From: Campylobacterales bacterium
GTDB lineage: Bacteria > Campylobacterota > Campylobacteria > Campylobacterales > QNZT01
Direction: 5' to 3'
DNA: 46,786 nucleotides
NCBI GenBank assembly: GCA_027081145.1
Contig: JALWLB010000098.1
Coordinates: forward strand, 1 to 46,786
The position numbers were made by a program, and so were the translations under genes. The number at the start of each line of letters is the position of its first letter. The stretch's first letter is position 1. The notes beneath the pieces were generated by a model. That model was given only the letters and a program-made list of their open reading frames with translations. It had not been told where the DNA came from and ran no database searches. Below, piece by piece: positions 10-10,928 of this stretch.

Positions 10-156
10 ATAAACAGGGACAGGCTACTTTTTTGTCTAGCAGATAACTTTTTTCTATTTCTTATTGGATTTGCTCTTAAATCCAAAATAACATAGAAAA
101 AGTTGAGGGTCAAAGTGCAACTATTACTTATTTAAAAGTAGCCTGTCCCTATTTAT
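10..156. repeat. Hairpin inverted-repeat element A. Arms are ATAAACAGGGACAGGCTACTTTT (10-32) and AAAAGTAGCCTGTCCCTATTTAT (134-156), with 1 mismatch. The ~101-nt spacer contains an inner 8-bp hairpin (65-72 / 79-86).
   Basis: Arms read directly from the sequence. The GC-rich core GGGACAGGCTACTTT recurs at 2319-2333 and inverted at 2408-2422. The element lies just 3' of the minus-strand lnt-like gene and is followed on the minus strand by a T-rich run. Confidence 0.85.
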
Positions 157-191
157 TAATATCACAATTGGCTACATGATATCTTGATTTT

Positions 192-1595
192 TCAAGTACT
201 TCTCAACACCTTTATCCCAACAAATCCCAAAAATAGAAGCAACACCATAGGAAAGATATCTCCAACCTTACTATAAAGCGTCTTTACCCGTTTTGTAGGA
301 ATTGATGCTATCATGATACGCTCATTCTCTTCAAAATAGCTCATCGATGCTCTCACTCTGCCATACGCATCAAAAGCATACGAAGTTGCACCTCGTACTG
401 GACGAAGTAAGCTATATCCACCCTCAATTGCTCTTACCATCGCCATTTTTCCATGGATATGATCTATCCCTCTCCAATCACTTGAAGGAACTACTGCAAT
501 GTCTATTCCTTTTTTGGCTAACTCTCGTCCTAGACTTGGAAAATCAAAGTCATAACAGATAGCACCTGAGATATTTATCTTATCATGATAAATGACTTTA
601 GCTATTTTTTCGCCCTTTATCGCTCCCTCTCCAGGAACTGGATGATACTTAAAGTAGCTGTCAATTACCTCTCCTTTTTGGATATAAAGATATTTGTTTT
701 CAAACTTTTTGATACCATCTATTGGAACGATATATGCGATAACCAAATCCACGCCACTTTTTTGTGAAATGGCTTTTAGTTGCTTGATAAACACCTCTTC
801 ATCATTTTTAAATACAATCGTAGCACCCTCATTCCATGCTACCAATTTTGCTCCATAGCTGATAGCTTGTTTTGTTTTGTCTATGAGTGTTTGTGTGCCT
901 TTTTGTAAATATGATTTTTTAGGAATTTTCTCTTGGGTAATTTGCATATCACTAACAATAGCGGCTACTTTTAGAGTTGGTGATTTTTGAGCATTTTCCA
1001 AACGAAATACACCATAAGTGTAAAAAATAGTATAGATGCCTATCATAATAAGAGCAGGTTTTAGCAATTCTTTTTTATCTTTTATGAGTATAAAAGAAGC
1101 GATAAATGCAGAAGAGAGATAGATAAAAAAAGAGCCAAGTGTGATACCAAAAAGAGAGCTCATCTGCAAAAATGCTAAATCATGTAGCTTGGTATAACTC
1201 ATCGCTCCCCATGAGCCAAGCTCACTAGTATAATATGTCAACCACTCCGAAACCGACATCAATGAGGCAAAGAAAAATACCCCCATCAATTCGCTTATGC
1301 GAACTCTTATCTTTTCATATATCCACAAAATCACAAAACTTCCCACTGCCATAGGAGCAGAAAAAAGTAGTGCCATTATATAAGGCATAGGCTCTGTCAC
1401 AATCTTTGAAACTTGCAAAAAATACGCCACTTGAAACAAAACAAAGATCGACAACCACCCTTTTATACCTCTACTATCTCTCACCAAAATCAAAAGAGGC
1501 ACATACATCACCCATGCCAAGATACTTACATTATAACGCATCCCCACAAGAGCGATAAAAAGCACACTTAAACTCCATAAAAAAGCCCTATTCAT
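192..1595 (-). CDS. lnt: Apolipoprotein N-acyltransferase-like membrane protein (Lnt / carbon-nitrogen hydrolase family)
   Basis: The ~200-aa N-terminus is polytopic and hydrophobic. The CN-hydrolase domain has Glu (VAWNEGA) and Cys (ICYDFDFP) motifs, and there is a terminal TM helix. The start overlaps the tetR stop by 4 nt. Confidence 0.6.
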   Translation of the reverse strand: MNRAFLWSLSVLFIALVGMRYNVSILAWVMYVPLLILVRDSRGIKGWLSIFVLFQVAYFLQVSKIVTEPMPYIMALLFSAPMAVGSFVILWIYEKIRVRISELMGVFFFASLMSVSEWLTYYTSELGSWGAMSYTKLHDLAFLQMSSLFGITLGSFFIYLSSAFIASFILIKDKKELLKPALIMIGIYTIFYTYGVFRLENAQKSPTLKVAAIVSDMQITQEKIPKKSYLQKGTQTLIDKTKQAISYGAKLVAWNEGATIVFKNDEEVFIKQLKAISQKSGVDLVIAYIVPIDGIKKFENKYLYIQKGEVIDSYFKYHPVPGEGAIKGEKIAKVIYHDKINISGAICYDFDFPSLGRELAKKGIDIAVVPSSDWRGIDHIHGKMAMVRAIEGGYSLLRPVRGATSYAFDAYGRVRASMSYFEENERIMIASIPTKRVKTLYSKVGDIFPMVLLLFLGFVGIKVLRST

Positions 1596-2263
1596 TTTAC
1601 AACCTTTTCAAATATCAAATTTAACTCTGCTTCAAATAGTGCAGGAAGTTGTTTTGCATCATGTTTTAATACCAAAAGAGAAGTACCAAAAAAAAGAGAT
1701 GATAATATCAAAAAAAGAAGCTCTTCATCCACTTCGTTTTTAAGCTCACCATTTGCCTTTGCTTGTGCGATCAATGATGGCAATATACTCTCTAATCCCA
1801 TCCCCTCGATCTTTTCAACTCCCTCAATCTCTTCAAAAAAGAGCCACTTTTCCGCTACAGTTATCTGATGAGCTTTTGTATTTGTCTTTCCAGCATGAAA
1901 AGCGATGATCTCTAACATGATTTGAGGATGAGCAGAGATATCTTTGGCTGATTCGATAAATATTGTTTTGATAGCTTTTACAAAAGAGTTGCTTTGTGCT
2001 TGAACTTTACTAGCTAAATGTTGCATCTGTATAGACCACATCTGAATAAAATAGACCAACATATCTTGCTTAGAATCAAAATAGTTAAAAAAAGTCGGCT
2101 CAGAAACTTCGGCTTTGTATGTAAGATCTTTTATCATGATAAAAGAGAGCTCTTTAGTCTCTAACTCATCTAACAAAGCATTTAAAAGTGCCGTTTTTGT
2201 TTTGGCAAATTTCTTTTGTCGTTGCGGTAGGGCATTAAATTTTTCTCTGTTTGTTGTTTTCAT
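1592..2263 (-). CDS. TetR/AcrR family transcriptional regulator
   Basis: N-terminal HTH (IKDLTYKAEVSEPTFFNYFDSKQDML) followed by an all-helical ligand domain of ~220 aa. It is translationally coupled to the downstream lnt-like gene. Confidence 0.8.
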   Translation of the reverse strand: MKTTNREKFNALPQRQKKFAKTKTALLNALLDELETKELSFIMIKDLTYKAEVSEPTFFNYFDSKQDMLVYFIQMWSIQMQHLASKVQAQSNSFVKAIKTIFIESAKDISAHPQIMLEIIAFHAGKTNTKAHQITVAEKWLFFEEIEGVEKIEGMGLESILPSLIAQAKANGELKNEVDEELLFLILSSLFFGTSLLVLKHDAKQLPALFEAELNLIFEKVVK

Positions 2264-2269
2264 AATAAA

Positions 2270-2298
2270 ATTATAGCCAAATATATTTTTATAGTCAA
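2270..2298 (-). promoter_or_regulatory. Sigma70-type promoter of tetR-lnt. On the minus strand it reads TTGACT (2298-2293), 17 nt, TATAAT (2275-2270), with only 6 nt to the tetR ATG (2263). The 14-bp palindrome TATAGTTGACTATA (2290-2303) overlaps the -35.
   Basis: Near-consensus hexamers with 17-nt spacing, read directly from the sequence. There is no Shine-Dalgarno before the ATG. The palindrome is a plausible TetR operator. Confidence 0.5.
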
Positions 2299-2313
2299 CT
2301 ATAATTATAAAGA

Positions 2314-2427
2314 AAATGGGGACAGGCTACTTTTATTTGATTTACAAACTATCGTATATCATGTAGGATAAATAAAACGGGATACTTTTTTACTCCTACT
2401 GTATATAAAGTAGCCTGTCCCTATTTA
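2314..2427. repeat. Hairpin inverted-repeat element B. The core arms are GGGACAGGCTACTTT (2319-2333) and AAAGTAGCCTGTCCC (2408-2422), extendable to ~20 nt with 1 mismatch, with a ~74-nt spacer.
   Basis: Same arm sequence and orientation as element A but an unrelated spacer. The spacer contains ATATCATGTAG (2356-2366). The element fills the gap between the mltG stop and the tetR promoter. Confidence 0.85.
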
Positions 2428-2435
2428 TTTAAATT

Positions 2436-3392
2436 CTATTTCATATTTCTAAGTTTATTGATATTTTCTAAATGCTCTTTATAGCTATGAGTAAAATTAT
2501 GTTTATGATCAGTTGATTTAACAAAATAGAGATAGTTCACATCTGCTGGAGCTAGTGCTGCATTTATACTATTTTCATCAACTGAACATATTGGATGAGG
2601 GGGAAGAGCTGGAATTTTGTAAGTGTTAAATTGCGAGTCATCATCTCTTATTCTTTTGCTCGTTATCTTTTTTCTTGAGTATTTTCCATAATTTAGTGCT
2701 CCATCCATCTGAAGCTTCATACCAATTTTTAATCTATTGTATATAACAGCTGAGATAAGATCCATCTCTGAAACTAAAACTGCCTCTTTTTGTATGATAG
2801 AGGCTATTGTTACATACTTTTCAAACCACTCTTTTTGATCATATTTATTAAAAACTTTCAAAGCAAAATTTTTATGCCATGATAGCGAATAATCAACCAA
2901 AAACTTTATCAAACTTTTTTCATTAATATCTATTGGCACTTTATAAGTATTTGCTACAAGTACACCATCTGGATATGGAGCCAATTTATCATACTCTTGA
3001 TATAAAAGAGTTATATTTAAATCAAACTTTTTCGCAACCTCTTGAAAAAAGATATCTTTAGTCTCACCTGGAATTAAGGTGATAGATTTTAGTGCAACTT
3101 TAGAATGGGTTAATTTATACAAAAATTCCGCTCTAGTTAAAGAGTTAGATTGTAAATCAATCCAACCAGCTTGTAAATATCCAAAAAATGGTATTAAATA
3201 TCGATCAAATGGACCAATTTGTGAAAAATTTTTCTCCAAATATGATAGCGTTTGAGTAGTAGAGCCTTTTGGAATAAAAATCAACTTCTTTGTAGTTATA
3301 TTTTCATCCAAATAGGCTTTAAAAAATAATAAGACAAATACAAAAAAGATAAGTAAAAATTCAACTATAAAAAATGGTATAAGTCTTATCAT
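2436..3392 (-). CDS. mltG: Endolytic peptidoglycan transglycosylase MltG (YceG-like)
   Basis: Single N-terminal TM helix and a YceG-type C-terminal region (ASIIQKEA...NRL...LQMDGALNYG...YNTY). GAGG Shine-Dalgarno upstream. Confidence 0.75.
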   Translation of the reverse strand: MIRLIPFFIVEFLLIFFVFVLLFFKAYLDENITTKKLIFIPKGSTTQTLSYLEKNFSQIGPFDRYLIPFFGYLQAGWIDLQSNSLTRAEFLYKLTHSKVALKSITLIPGETKDIFFQEVAKKFDLNITLLYQEYDKLAPYPDGVLVANTYKVPIDINEKSLIKFLVDYSLSWHKNFALKVFNKYDQKEWFEKYVTIASIIQKEAVLVSEMDLISAVIYNRLKIGMKLQMDGALNYGKYSRKKITSKRIRDDDSQFNTYKIPALPPHPICSVDENSINAALAPADVNYLYFVKSTDHKHNFTHSYKEHLENINKLRNMK

Positions 3393-8921: not shown

Positions 8922-10928
8922 TTATTTTAAGTAGTTAATCAAAGAGAGAGAATTGACCTTTGAAATAGTTGATAAAAGTGCTTGATAATTTAGTGTTAGT
9001 TGGTTAAATTCAAGTACACTTTGAGCTAAGTTAGCATCTATATTTTTTGATTTTAATTCAACTACATTTAACTCCATCACCTCTGTTTTATCTTTGATAG
9101 TTGATAAAGAGTTACTAATAGTACCAATACGAGATTGTTGAGTATTAAAATTATTCATAAACTTTTCCAATTTTAATAAAGAGTTTTGCATACCCACACT
9201 TCTAGGATTTGTTTCATTAGCATCCATATCAACTCGCCCACTTCTAACAGAGTCGATAATCTCATCTAACTCTTTAAAAAAATTGATATTTTGTTCATTA
9301 ATTGTTATAGCATTATTTGACATAAATGATAAAGATGGTGCACTCAAGTTTGAAAAATCATTTGAAGCTTTATCATAGAGTGCAAATTTAATTTGACTGC
9401 TATCATTTGTAAGGTCTCGAATCTCTAAAAAACCTTGAGAGTTGATTTTAGAATCTATACTCTTTTTAGACTCTATCACTGCACTATTATAATCACTAGC
9501 ACTATTTGTAGTTGCTGGAAGCTCATTTGATAAAACCATACTAATAATATCATGTAACTGTTGATATGTAAAATCATCTCCATCAGTTACATTTCCATCT
9601 GCATCATATATATTATATGTTGTAGATCCTATGCTAAAAGTTGAGTTGTTTGTATCTAAGTTTAACTCAACCGATACATCAGAGCCAGTTATATCAGTTA
9701 GCTCCATAATAAAACTTTGACCATTCAAAGATGATACACCTGCACTATCAACCAATTTTGTACTATTAGTTGCAAAATCATCTCCACTCATAATAGCAAC
9801 ATTTCCTCTTAATATATTTGAATCTTTTTCAAAATAAAATTGATCAATTTGTAAAGATTCATTTACTGTAGAATTGACTGAACTAAAATCACTTTTTATA
9901 AACTCTATAATTTCAACATTGCTAACATTGTTTAAATTACTCAAATTTTTATCTGTATAAATAGTATTATTTAAATCTGCATCATCTACATTTGCATCAC
10001 TTATATCTCTATCAATTGCACCTACAATTTTAAAATCAAGCCTACTACTACCAGAATTTAAATCTTTAATAACTATCTGTCCTCGATCATTTAAACTAAC
10101 TTCAACCACTTTTTGATCTACACTATTTCCAAAAGAGTTACCAATTTTATCAAGCAATTCACTTACACTTCTATCAGTACTTAAGTCAATTTGAGTTTTA
10201 AAACTTTCACCACTTGGTTTTGTGCCTGAGATATAAAAGTGTGCCGTTGCATCATCTGATTGATCATTATTGTTATCTCCAACCAAATCTCTAATAGTAT
10301 CACTATCTTTTAATATCTCATTAGTATCACTAGTTTTATTATAAAGAACTACATTTGTTGAGATAGTTTTATGTTGAGTTGAATCTTTTCCTAAAAATAG
10401 AGACTCTCCATCTACATTATAAGCCAGTTTTGTACTCTTTCCTGTAATTGTGCTCAAACTTTTATTATTTCCTAAATAGTTACCATTTTCATCTATCGGT
10501 TTTGTATTTATCATATCTCCTGAAAATAGATATTTTCCATTAAAAGTTGTATTTGCTAAAGAGATTAAATACTCTTTTTCAGCCTCCAACTCAGATGCAA
10601 TTGCCTCTCTACCACTTGCATTAACCGTTGCATTGGCAGCTTGAATTAGTTTTGTTTTAAACTTATTTAATGAGTCATAAAAATCACTCAGCGTTGAATC
10701 ACTAATATCAGCAAAAGTTTTAGCTTGTTCAACAGAGCTTTTTATTTGTGAGAGAAAGTTTTTTTCAGAGTTTAATCTTAAGTTAGCAGAATTGATTGAG
10801 CTATCTTCATAACCTTTTTGAATCTTCATACCAGATGATATCTGTTTGTTTAATCTATCAATCTCTTTAGCTGCACTGGCTTGATCATTTTTAAAATTTG
10901 CATAAAATAGATTACTAGATACTCTCAT
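8922..10928 (-). CDS. flgL: Flagellar hook-associated protein 3 FlgL (flagellin-family N/C termini with a large variable central domain)
   Basis: MRVSSNLFYANFKNDQ...NKQISSGMKIQ is a flagellin/FlgL N-terminal helix, and the C-terminus (LEFNQLTLNYQALLSTISKVNSLSLINYL) is the matching C-terminal helix. The ATG at 10928 is preceded by GGAG. Confidence 0.75.
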   Translation of the reverse strand: MRVSSNLFYANFKNDQASAAKEIDRLNKQISSGMKIQKGYEDSSINSANLRLNSEKNFLSQIKSSVEQAKTFADISDSTLSDFYDSLNKFKTKLIQAANATVNASGREAIASELEAEKEYLISLANTTFNGKYLFSGDMINTKPIDENGNYLGNNKSLSTITGKSTKLAYNVDGESLFLGKDSTQHKTISTNVVLYNKTSDTNEILKDSDTIRDLVGDNNNDQSDDATAHFYISGTKPSGESFKTQIDLSTDRSVSELLDKIGNSFGNSVDQKVVEVSLNDRGQIVIKDLNSGSSRLDFKIVGAIDRDISDANVDDADLNNTIYTDKNLSNLNNVSNVEIIEFIKSDFSSVNSTVNESLQIDQFYFEKDSNILRGNVAIMSGDDFATNSTKLVDSAGVSSLNGQSFIMELTDITGSDVSVELNLDTNNSTFSIGSTTYNIYDADGNVTDGDDFTYQQLHDIISMVLSNELPATTNSASDYNSAVIESKKSIDSKINSQGFLEIRDLTNDSSQIKFALYDKASNDFSNLSAPSLSFMSNNAITINEQNINFFKELDEIIDSVRSGRVDMDANETNPRSVGMQNSLLKLEKFMNNFNTQQSRIGTISNSLSTIKDKTEVMELNVVELKSKNIDANLAQSVLEFNQLTLNYQALLSTISKVNSLSLINYLK

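Follow-up and report, generated by a model that had tools for sequence, protein, structure and literature searches.

REP units are short imperfect palindromes with a terminal GTAG, and their doublets, which share a conserved spacer, number in the tens to hundreds; Correia-type MITEs are of DDE-type ancestry and come with target-site duplications. The TIRYT/TIR-repeat arrangement, named in 2013, is also already known and has been little studied: a search of the literature found no experimental study of such systems, and we know of no TIRYT for which binding or cleavage of its own TIR has been demonstrated. Di Nocera, De Gregorio and Rocco (2013; PMC3733652) describe TIRYT genes as flanked by TIRs sharing GGGGWSAS, and TIR families as occurring in the form of singles, dimers and groups. 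Most TIRYTs are found in TnpA_REP subclass 2.1, which is characterized by a C-terminal HTH (Quentin et al. 2018; PMC6006769), and REP/REPIN-RAYT systems have been described in their own right (Nunvar 2010; Bertels and Rainey 2011, PMC3116915). The repeat family reported here, called the C56 family after the contig carrying its transposase gene, is a further case of the TIRYT/TIR-repeat arrangement.

In the window, i.e., the whole 46,786-nt stretch of DNA that was analysed, two hairpins, elements A and B, enclose a tetR/lnt-like gene pair (Table 1). The 15-mer GGGACAGGCTACTTT is present without mismatch at 17(+), 135(-), 2319(+) and 2407(-), the four copies forming two inverted pairs as stated in the original prediction, which had also judged their chance origin implausible; indeed, shuffled sequences contained 0.05 copies on average and none out of 100 reached four. 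The arms are 23 nt long and 96% complementary in element A, and 20 nt long (2314-2333/2407-2426) and 95% complementary in element B. Aligned arms follow a consensus close to TAAA-N-R-GGGACAGGCTACTTT-W, and strict identity across the four window arms is confined to a core of 15-16 nt. The spacers, 101 and 73 nt long, are unrelated as predicted, no similarity being found between that of A and that of B, and no homologue of the former was found in 401 genomes of the order. The additional statement that both pairs have the same overall orientation carries little meaning, since the arms are symmetric. Folded as single strands, both elements are far more stable than shuffled sequences (dG between -24 and -32 kcal/mol, z between -6.8 and -8.8), and an Rfam search of the hairpins (E <=1) returned only meaningless matches to plant and animal miRNA precursors. 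Both pairs do lie 3' of minus-strand genes, element A ending 35 nt past the lnt-like stop (192-194) and element B 7-9 nt past the mltG stop (2436-2438), and on that strand both hairpins are followed by the announced T-rich tails. Element B lies 15 nt before the -35 box of the tetR promoter.

Table 1. Features of the region around elements A and B (positions in the window).
Feature	Positions	Strand	Basis or remark
Element A left arm, TIR copy, GGGACAGGCTACTTT core at 17-31	10..32	+	arm pairing and 15-mer matches
Element A spacer, 101 nt, locus-unique, AT-rich inner hairpin 50-72/79-101	33..133	.	
Element A right arm, TIR copy	134..156	-	arm pairing and 15-mer matches
Lnt-like paralogue, LNT_N + CN_hydrolase, below TIGR00546 cut-off	192..1595	-	
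Weak TetR-family regulator	1592..2263	-	invariably paired, in relatives, with the lnt-like gene
Promoter-like site of the tetR/lnt-like unit, TTGACT-17-TATAAT	2270..2298	-	
Element B left arm, TIR copy	2314..2333	+	8-nt/7-nt tandem duplications at outer end in another metagenome
Element B spacer, 73 nt	2334..2406	.	second copy of whole element at G000:C157:9474-9579
Element B right arm, TIR copy	2407..2428	-	arm pairing and 15-mer matches
mltG (YceG)	2436..3392	-	followed by icd in 12/12 relatives, not by element B/tetR

Elements A and B are dimers of a dispersed TIR family. In the 1.85-Mb Sulfurovum-like genome, GGGACAGGCTACTTT was found in 24 copies at <=1 mismatch (0 for the reversed control), showing that the arms are not local, and all 23 exact copies are intergenic in spite of a coding fraction of 0.91 (P ~4e-25). 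The core is invariant in 22/22 aligned arms, with almost no degenerate tail; 10 of these arms contain GGGGACAG and the remaining ones AGGGACAG. Genome-wide, the arms are laid out as six dimers with spacers of 6-101 nt, one TIRtron pair and about eight single arms, and most copies are located 0-100 nt past stop codons. Single arms are not self-complementary and have no internal stem, the GTAG/CTAC found within the TIR being placed such that GTAG sits inside the inter-arm stem. Several contigs end in arms, and two further TIRYT/TIR families of the same genome, whose TIRs read GGGGTCAG at the GGGGWSAS motif, behave alike. A literature search with the arm sequence matched only human PCR primers. 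A DNA-uptake-sequence function was ruled out by the copy number (24 per 1.85 Mb).

Regarding the history of individual copies, a second copy of element B was found between unrelated genes on contig C157, in opposite orientation and with 88% identity over 108 nt; aligned on its own, the spacer matches only over its first 41 nt (93%). Moreover, in another metagenome tandem duplications of 8 and 7 nt are located exactly at the outer arm end of element B. A dimer of this family has thus been duplicated in its entirety, and one arm end is polymorphic. Repeated spacers are seen in the B type alone (two copies), the spacers of the other dimers being unrelated, and this predominance of unrelated spacers is not explained if dimers were simply copied and pasted as wholes; nor was any similarity found between the A and B spacers and the ancestral intergenic DNA of relatives. 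Element B is present in all six assemblies and the C157 copy in all four. The elements were present in every assembly reached by exact-protein look-ups, and those of MltG, TetR, the Lnt-like protein, PpaC, the GH114 gene product and the C157 neighbour found no empty-site allele. Both B-type dimers adjoin TetR genes. Copying of the dimer together with its TetR gene was considered and rejected, the two proteins being unrelated (E = 15) and the dimers pointing in opposite directions relative to them.

The original prediction had suggested looking upstream of position 1 for a RAYT/IS200-like or tyrosine recombinase gene. A single-copy RAYT-like gene does exist, but on contig C56; position 1 is preceded by ppaC and further ordinary genes, with no transposase among them. 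This ORF (G000:C56:9056-9718), adjoined by a GH114 gene, encodes a 220-aa Y1/HUH transposase, which scores 59.9 bits with Pfam Y1_Tnp and 76 bits with NCBIfam REP_Tyr_transpos (cut-off 80), and has an arm on either side, at 9048(+) and 9763(-). Among PDB entries the protein is related only to E. coli TnpA_REP (4ER8), and the HUH motif (NHFHLLL/EHMHCIW) and the catalytic Tyr (KYIEANALRA/DYIYINPVKH) of the two align. No C-terminal HTH was found by Pfam at E <=1, which returned only Y1_Tnp and a sub-threshold AT-hook, and the C-terminal tail RGRPPKSKK is weakly AT-hook-like; the paralogous TIRYTs at C124 and C12 have tails judged HTH-like by eye. On sequence grounds, the C56 protein belongs to the RAYT/TnpA_REP lineage and is a TIRYT as Di Nocera et al. 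(2013) use the term.

The arms and this transposase gene are linked well beyond the present genome. Orthologues (50-71% identity) flanked by the same 15-mer occur in at least ten other genomes, spanning at least five Campylobacterales families, with a plus-strand arm ~60 nt before the gene and a minus-strand arm 3-60 nt past it, a layout also seen in Methylomarinum, a gammaproteobacterium; the 15-nt TIR core is hence unchanged across two phyla. The orthologue, one per genome wherever present, was found in 13 of 32 arm-bearing genomes against none of 37 arm-less ones (Fisher p = 9e-6), and is missing from 19 of 30 arm-bearing genomes examined. Across the order, the 15-mer is present in 46/401 genomes and 22/96 genera, with the reversed control at 0 everywhere, a distribution that points to horizontal spread and not to strictly vertical inheritance.

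These data bear directly on the idea that the arms are structured terminators or 3'-UTR stabilisers evolved by the host and devoid of mobility. The location of the copies just past stop codons, the T-run that follows the stem on both strands, the calling of a short-loop member as a terminator and the fixation of the examined copies across samples all agree with it. Nevertheless, an origin of this kind is quite improbable, given that the same 15-mer flanks a transposase gene in more than ten genomes, one of them in another phylum, that its phylogenetic spread is patchy, that a whole dimer was duplicated into an unrelated locus and that the common single arms cannot make a hairpin. As a secondary property, termination is plausible: each dimer has a stem built on G and C, with a T-run behind it on either strand, and the dimer at C17, with its 6-nt loop right at an ORF stop, is called a canonical terminator. 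Elements A and B, despite stem and T-run, are not called, as loops of 73-101 nt do not fall within the canonical range for intrinsic terminators. The dimers probably double as bidirectional terminators or insulators. The terminator reading of the original prediction is plausible for what the elements may do, but not for where their sequence comes from.

We consider, with a probability of about 0.78, that elements A and B are dimers of a TIR family whose cognate enzyme is the TIRYT on C56. Several features are those of TIRtrons and TIRYTs: a RAYT-like Y1/HUH gene flanked by long TIRs instead of REP hairpins, a TIR starting with GGGGWSAS (here GGGGACAG), TIR copies scattered between genes at moderate numbers, be it as single arms, dimers or groups, and several TIRYT genes per genome, each with its own TIR family. 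In contrast to these systems, the C56 protein is short and lacks a C-terminal HTH by Pfam, its TIR has an internal GTAG/CTAC, and the 15-nt core is invariant in spite of the divergence of the orthologues over two phyla. With REP/REPIN-RAYT systems, the family shares a Y1 transposase that is single-copy, looks domesticated and has on its flanks the repeat that it presumably mobilises, and inverted doublets that give long hairpins, lie extragenically after genes and show no target-site duplication. It departs from them in that a single arm is no palindrome and GTAG is not terminal, spacers are mostly unrelated, the ~24 copies are far below classical REPIN populations (hundreds) and the distribution suggests horizontal spread. 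The original prediction of REPIN/MITE-like mobile hairpins is therefore supported by a dispersed family and a RAYT-like Y1 gene with the same arms, but in a modified form: no single arm is palindromic, which sets the arms apart from classical REPs, and the TIRYT/TIR-repeat variant fits instead. Since the arrangement fits this family, A and B are non-autonomous REPIN-like dimers. Like E. coli BIMEs and Correia- or NEMIS-type MITEs, they are mosaic intergenic elements made of inverted units with variable linkers, a kind of element that is co-transcribed with upstream genes and may serve as terminator or RNA-stability element; unlike Correia-type MITEs, with their DDE ancestry and target-site duplications, they are associated with an HUH enzyme and no direct repeat was found around element B or its C157 copy. 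A DDE-derived MITE was rejected for this same lack of a direct repeat and because the only arm-bounded gene is the Y1 transposase.

In the mechanism that we favor, the two arms of a pair would fold together on single-stranded DNA into a stem of 20-23 bp, and this hairpin intermediate would be recognised by the HUH enzyme, here the C56 TIRYT, which may cut or rejoin it. An arm pair with any content could then be mobilised or copied in trans, in the way that has been proposed for REPINs, and single arms as well as small gene cassettes between arms would arise as by-products. Copies survive only in intergenic DNA, mostly shortly after stop codons. At the present locus, element B would part mltG from tetR, and element A the lnt-like gene from ppaC.

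The gene order at this locus raises the question of whether the arms do more than insert. The tetR/lnt-like pair forms a module that is accessory and patchily distributed: the lnt-like orthologue is present in only 2/32 family genomes, the context of the pair differs in each carrier, and a canonical lnt is found elsewhere in the genome. In all 12 relatives examined (7 other genera), mltG is directly followed by icd, ~100 nt downstream; here this junction is split within ~20 nt of the mltG stop, with element B next to mltG and, towards icd, a dimer that belongs to another TIRYT family, contig C64 having been bridged by a metagenome pattern scan (look-ups of Icd and Mdh were not informative for this purpose). 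The lnt-like|ppaC junction, which carries element A, was not found in relatives. Dimers of two TIRYT families are thus present at three lineage-specific junctions, mltG|tetR, lnt-like|ppaC and ybgC-like|icd, and with TIR dimers of whatever kind in only ~1-2% of the intergenic regions, three novel junctions out of three is unlikely by chance on rough odds. Furthermore, several genomes have toxin-antitoxin-like cassettes beside the TIRYT that are enclosed by directly oriented arms. These observations speak for arms that are recombination or joining sites, at which, through the TIRYT or by recombination between dispersed dimers, the tetR/lnt-like unit came to lie between mltG and ppaC, A and B being scars or sites of that event and not later independent insertions. 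We nonetheless regard this as unlikely: in four genomes (G024, L037-L039) the same module is found with no such arms and no other GC-rich inverted repeats, the rearranged block is larger than two genes (the lnt-like gene is followed by ppaC, a cinA-like gene, a response regulator and MNT/HepT), gene order around ppaC and the 259-aa gene is generally fluid in the family, breakpoints and repeat insertions, both intergenic, would coincide now and then in any case, and no excised or empty form was found in the assemblies. The cassette reading of the original prediction has circumstantial support in that A and B fall at lineage-specific junctions of a patchy module, but no empty site was found. A single inversion was rejected as the cause, since it does not fit the contexts that the tetR/lnt-like pair and the 259-aa gene have in relatives.

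Integron attC-like sites bounding gene cassettes might also be suggested, given that small cassettes, often of the toxin-antitoxin type, lie between inverted arms whose centres are variable, unrelated and 6-101 nt long. This is scarcely credible, and effectively refuted by the missing integrase and core sites: the best TIGR02249 match reaches 59 bits for a cut-off of 265, is Xer-like and occurs in all control genomes as well, the arm ends have no conserved RYYYAAC/GTTRRRY boxes, their outer positions being TAAANR, and the associated enzyme is an HUH transposase. A broader proposition, that TIRYT-type dimers make gene-order junctions, either by HUH transposases joining arm-bearing DNA or by dimers recombining, is tentative and rather doubtful; the tetR/lnt-like pair and the toxin-antitoxin cassettes would be candidate modules shuffled between arm pairs.

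Returning to the reading that we prefer, in which A and B are dimers served by the C56 TIRYT, this family provides a clean test case, with a short enzyme, a 15-nt core that is unchanged while the protein falls to 50% identity, natural dimers with loops of 6-101 nt and a population polymorphism exactly at the arm end. For annotators, it is of relevance that TIR elements break short-read assemblies, sit at gene-order breakpoints and probably insulate neighbouring operons. Finally, if dimers do make junctions, vent Campylobacterota would have a further way of rearranging their genomes by modules, one that relies on an HUH enzyme and is an HUH-based counterpart of cassette systems.

It is confirmed that the window holds two inverted pairs of arms with an identical 15-nt core, since four exact copies of GGGACAGGCTACTTT are found where shuffled sequences give 0.05, and that the spacers of the two pairs (elements A and B) are without mutual similarity, both as the original prediction had it. 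As single strands, the two elements fold far above shuffles (dG -24 to -32 kcal/mol, z -6.8 to -8.8). Profile matches also bear out the earlier calls of lnt-like, tetR and mltG genes: element A begins 35 nt past the lnt-like stop on the minus strand, element B begins 7-9 nt past the mltG stop, and the near-consensus promoter anticipated for the tetR unit is present, its -35 box lying 15 nt from the end of element B. The word CTACATGAT(AT) occurs on the minus strand both beside element A (172-183) and within the spacer of element B (2353-2364), and is mutated in a second copy of element B on contig C157.

Coordinates of the elements, genes and related features in the window, on other contigs of its genome (C-numbers) and in other assemblies (L-numbers)
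Feature	Location	Strand	Description
Element A	window 10-32/134-156		arms 23 nt, 96% complementary; spacer 101 nt
Lnt-like protein	window 192-1595	-	LNT_N + CN_hydrolase
TetR	window 1592-2263	-	weak match
Element B	window 2314-2333/2407-2426		arms 20 nt, 95% complementary; spacer 73 nt
MltG/YceG	window 2436-3392	-	
TIRYT ORF	C56, between arms 9048(+) and 9763(-)		220 aa, N-terminus MPRIARGETVGGIYHVINRGN; sole ORF within ~700-bp pair
C124 TIRYT family	C124:869-1707		TIR GGGGTCAGAGTT... / GGGGTCAGAGTTNAACTNTTAAC; 4 copies
C12 TIRYT family	C12:2604-3439		TIR GGGGTCAGGGTTTGCCTTTTGCC... / GGGGTCAGGGTTTG(C/A)CTTTTGCC; ~19 copies, incl. 46-nt dimers
RelE/ParE-like cassettes	C56:9861-10445; L064:746-1328; L074:2951-3461; L067:572-1185		
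Family-3 dimer	L094:351-420 vs C63:28-92		loop comparison

The arms belong to a dispersed family. In the genome of this contig (G000; 1.85 Mb, 184 contigs, 30% G+C, Sulfurovum-like by closest relatives), 24 copies of the core with at most one mismatch were found, the reversed control giving 0, so that the repeat is not local. The aligned arm approximates TAAA-N-R-GGGACAGGCTACTTT-W, with the core unchanged in 22/22 aligned arms and degenerate relatives nearly absent from the genome. The copies comprise six inverted dimers (spacers of 6 nt on C17, ~35 nt on C114, 73-75 nt for B, C157 and C16, and 101 nt for A), one pair ~700 bp apart and ~8 single arms. All 23 exact copies fall outside a crude gene model covering 91% of the genome (P ~4e-25), the majority 0-100 nt past a stop codon. 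On C114, the dimer lies at the end of the contig, directly against the truncated N-terminus of an IS-type transposase (C114:3250-3519; an integrase-family HTH region).

The ~700-bp pair, on C56, encloses a single-copy gene whose protein matches Pfam Y1_Tnp (59.9 bits) and, slightly below the cut-off of 80, the NCBIfam REP-associated tyrosine transposase (76 bits). Among solved structures, its sole relative is E. coli TnpA_REP (4ER8), and the HUH motif and catalytic tyrosine of the two align. In Di Nocera et al. (2013; PMC3733652), RAYT-like genes with long TIRs in place of GTAG-tagged REP hairpins are named TIRYT and the units TIRtrons, GGGGWSAS is common to many TIRs, and the TIR families are "moderately abundant", as singles, dimers and groups. 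The arms start with GGGGACAG or AGGGACAG and therefore fit this motif. Most TIRYTs form TnpA_REP subclass 2.1, with a C-terminal HTH (Quentin et al., 2018; PMC6006769), whereas a Pfam search of the C56 protein gave no HTH, only a weak AT-hook-like tail.

Of 30 other Campylobacterales genomes with arms, 11 have an orthologue (50-71% identity, one per genome), and G031 adds a twelfth (63%); none of 37 arm-less genomes has one above 43% identity (Fisher p = 9e-6). At least ten orthologue genomes have the exact core ~60 nt upstream of the gene and an inverted core 3-60 nt downstream. Across the order, GGGACAGGCTACTTT is present in 46/401 genomes and 22/96 genera, the reversed control in none. The gammaproteobacterium Methylomarinum sp. 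Ch1-1 carries a 69%-identical orthologue between the same arms; the unit therefore crosses phyla with its ends kept. Many metagenomic orthologues lie on contigs of just 0.8-1.3 kb, as would be expected if arms regularly disrupt short-read assembly; L082 and L083 stop exactly at an arm. In several genomes, RelE/ParE-like two-gene cassettes, with arms in direct orientation around them, directly adjoin the TIRYT gene.

Two additional TIRYT genes, on C124 (268 aa) and C12 (281 aa), have their own TIRs. The C12-family 46-nt dimers lie near several contig ends (e.g., C30:53/99, C63:31/77, C132:2640/2686), and at C18:7320 and C29:23402 a C124-family TIR stands ~30 nt from an arm of the A/B family, resembling a mixed-family dimer.

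Elements A and B thus probably belong, as non-autonomous dimers, to a TIR family associated with a TIRYT (probability roughly 0.78), and REPIN analogues are their best-supported description. The mobile REPIN/MITE-like hairpins first envisaged fit best, given a dispersed family and a Y1 transposase between the same arms. IS200/IS605 and TnpA_REP suggest, by analogy, that the TIRYT would work on single strands whose two arms are paired; this would explain the freely varying content between arms. Other identities failed: a lone arm is no palindrome, unlike a classical REP, and a DDE-type MITE calls for a target-site duplication and a DDE parent, neither of which was found. Integron attC sites are poorly supported and extremely improbable, with no integron integrase in the genome and no R boxes at the arms.

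Regarding mobility, the C157 copy of element B (C157:9474-9579) matches it at 88% identity across 108 nt, arms and spacer taken together, the spacer alone aligning only over its first 41 nt (93%). It lies in opposite orientation between unrelated genes; homology does not extend beyond the arms, and neither copy has a duplication beside it. A population polymorphism is seen in a metagenome (L079, ERZ27262687), where the tetR-side arm of B ends in GTAGCCTGTCCCC[CTGTCCCC]ATTTTCTTT[TTTCTTT], tandem 8-nt (CTGTCCCC) and 7-nt (TTTCTTT) duplications exactly at the arm terminus, corresponding to window 2305-2320 just upstream of the tetR promoter; the outer arm shows comparable short tandem repeats elsewhere, both at further copies and in further genomes. 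On the other hand, 6/6 assemblies with this MltG have B, and 4/4 with the neighbour of the C157 copy have that copy, which speaks against recent activity.

The arms had also been proposed to delimit an inserted gene module. The locus and its continuation past the window start are covered by an independent ENA scaffold of 99.99% identity, in the order FtsK-AcnB-MscL-MltG-[B]-TetR-Lnt-like-[A]-PpaC-CinA-like-lipoprotein-response regulator-MNT/HepT. C103 therefore joins the window start and no transposase adjoins element A; the RAYT-like gene suspected upstream of position 1 exists, but on C56. In 12/12 relatives, which represent seven further genera of the family, monomeric icd follows mltG by ~100 nt; in G000 it lies on C64. 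On a JGI contig (L094), icd keeps its complete ancestral upstream region, preceded by a TIR dimer of another family (family-3) and, beyond it, a ybgC-like gene and the trpF/rpe operon; the ybgC-like/icd adjacency is absent from seven relatives examined. Both sides of the broken mltG/icd junction thus carry TIRYT-type dimers. The loops of this family-3 dimer differ between two same-species populations (GTGCAACC vs GATCGCAAAA), the arms being identical. Upstream of icd, GTGTGAA...GTAACAC-type repeats conserved across genera (C64:1-121; in L040-L051, between mltG and icd) look like an operator for a regulator.

The lnt-like/ppaC junction is specific to this lineage, and three of three novel junctions carry a TIR dimer, where only about 1-2% of all intergenic regions have one of any kind; this speaks for the arms as cassette boundaries. 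As a divergent paralogue, the lnt-like gene is distinct from the canonical lnt, which scores above the TIGR00546 cut-off in 27/32 family genomes; here two sub-cut-off fragments at the ends of C84 and C76 suggest that it is present but assembly-split. The paralogue, always accompanied by a TetR gene, has an orthologue in just 2/32 family genomes. Its distribution is thus patchy, and contexts differ among the four other carriers of the pair, but none of these has GC-rich inverted repeats at its borders. As the module exists elsewhere without arms, gene order in the family is generally fluid and the assemblies show neither an empty site nor an excised form, a cassette bounded by the arms is unlikely; that TIRYT-type dimers make gene-order junctions is likewise doubtful.

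Every dimer has a GC-based stem with YNTTTA after it on each strand, and the short-loop C17 dimer, which lies at the stop of an ORF, is predicted to be a canonical terminator. Pure host terminators are poorly supported and very unlikely; as non-autonomous TIR dimers, A and B probably also serve as insulators between mltG and tetR and between the lnt-like gene and ppaC. A literature search gave no paper with the arm sequence, although Figure 9 of the 2013 paper may already list this exact TIR. The A/B arms add one more family to the TIRYT/TIR repeats, an established but little-explored type of element.
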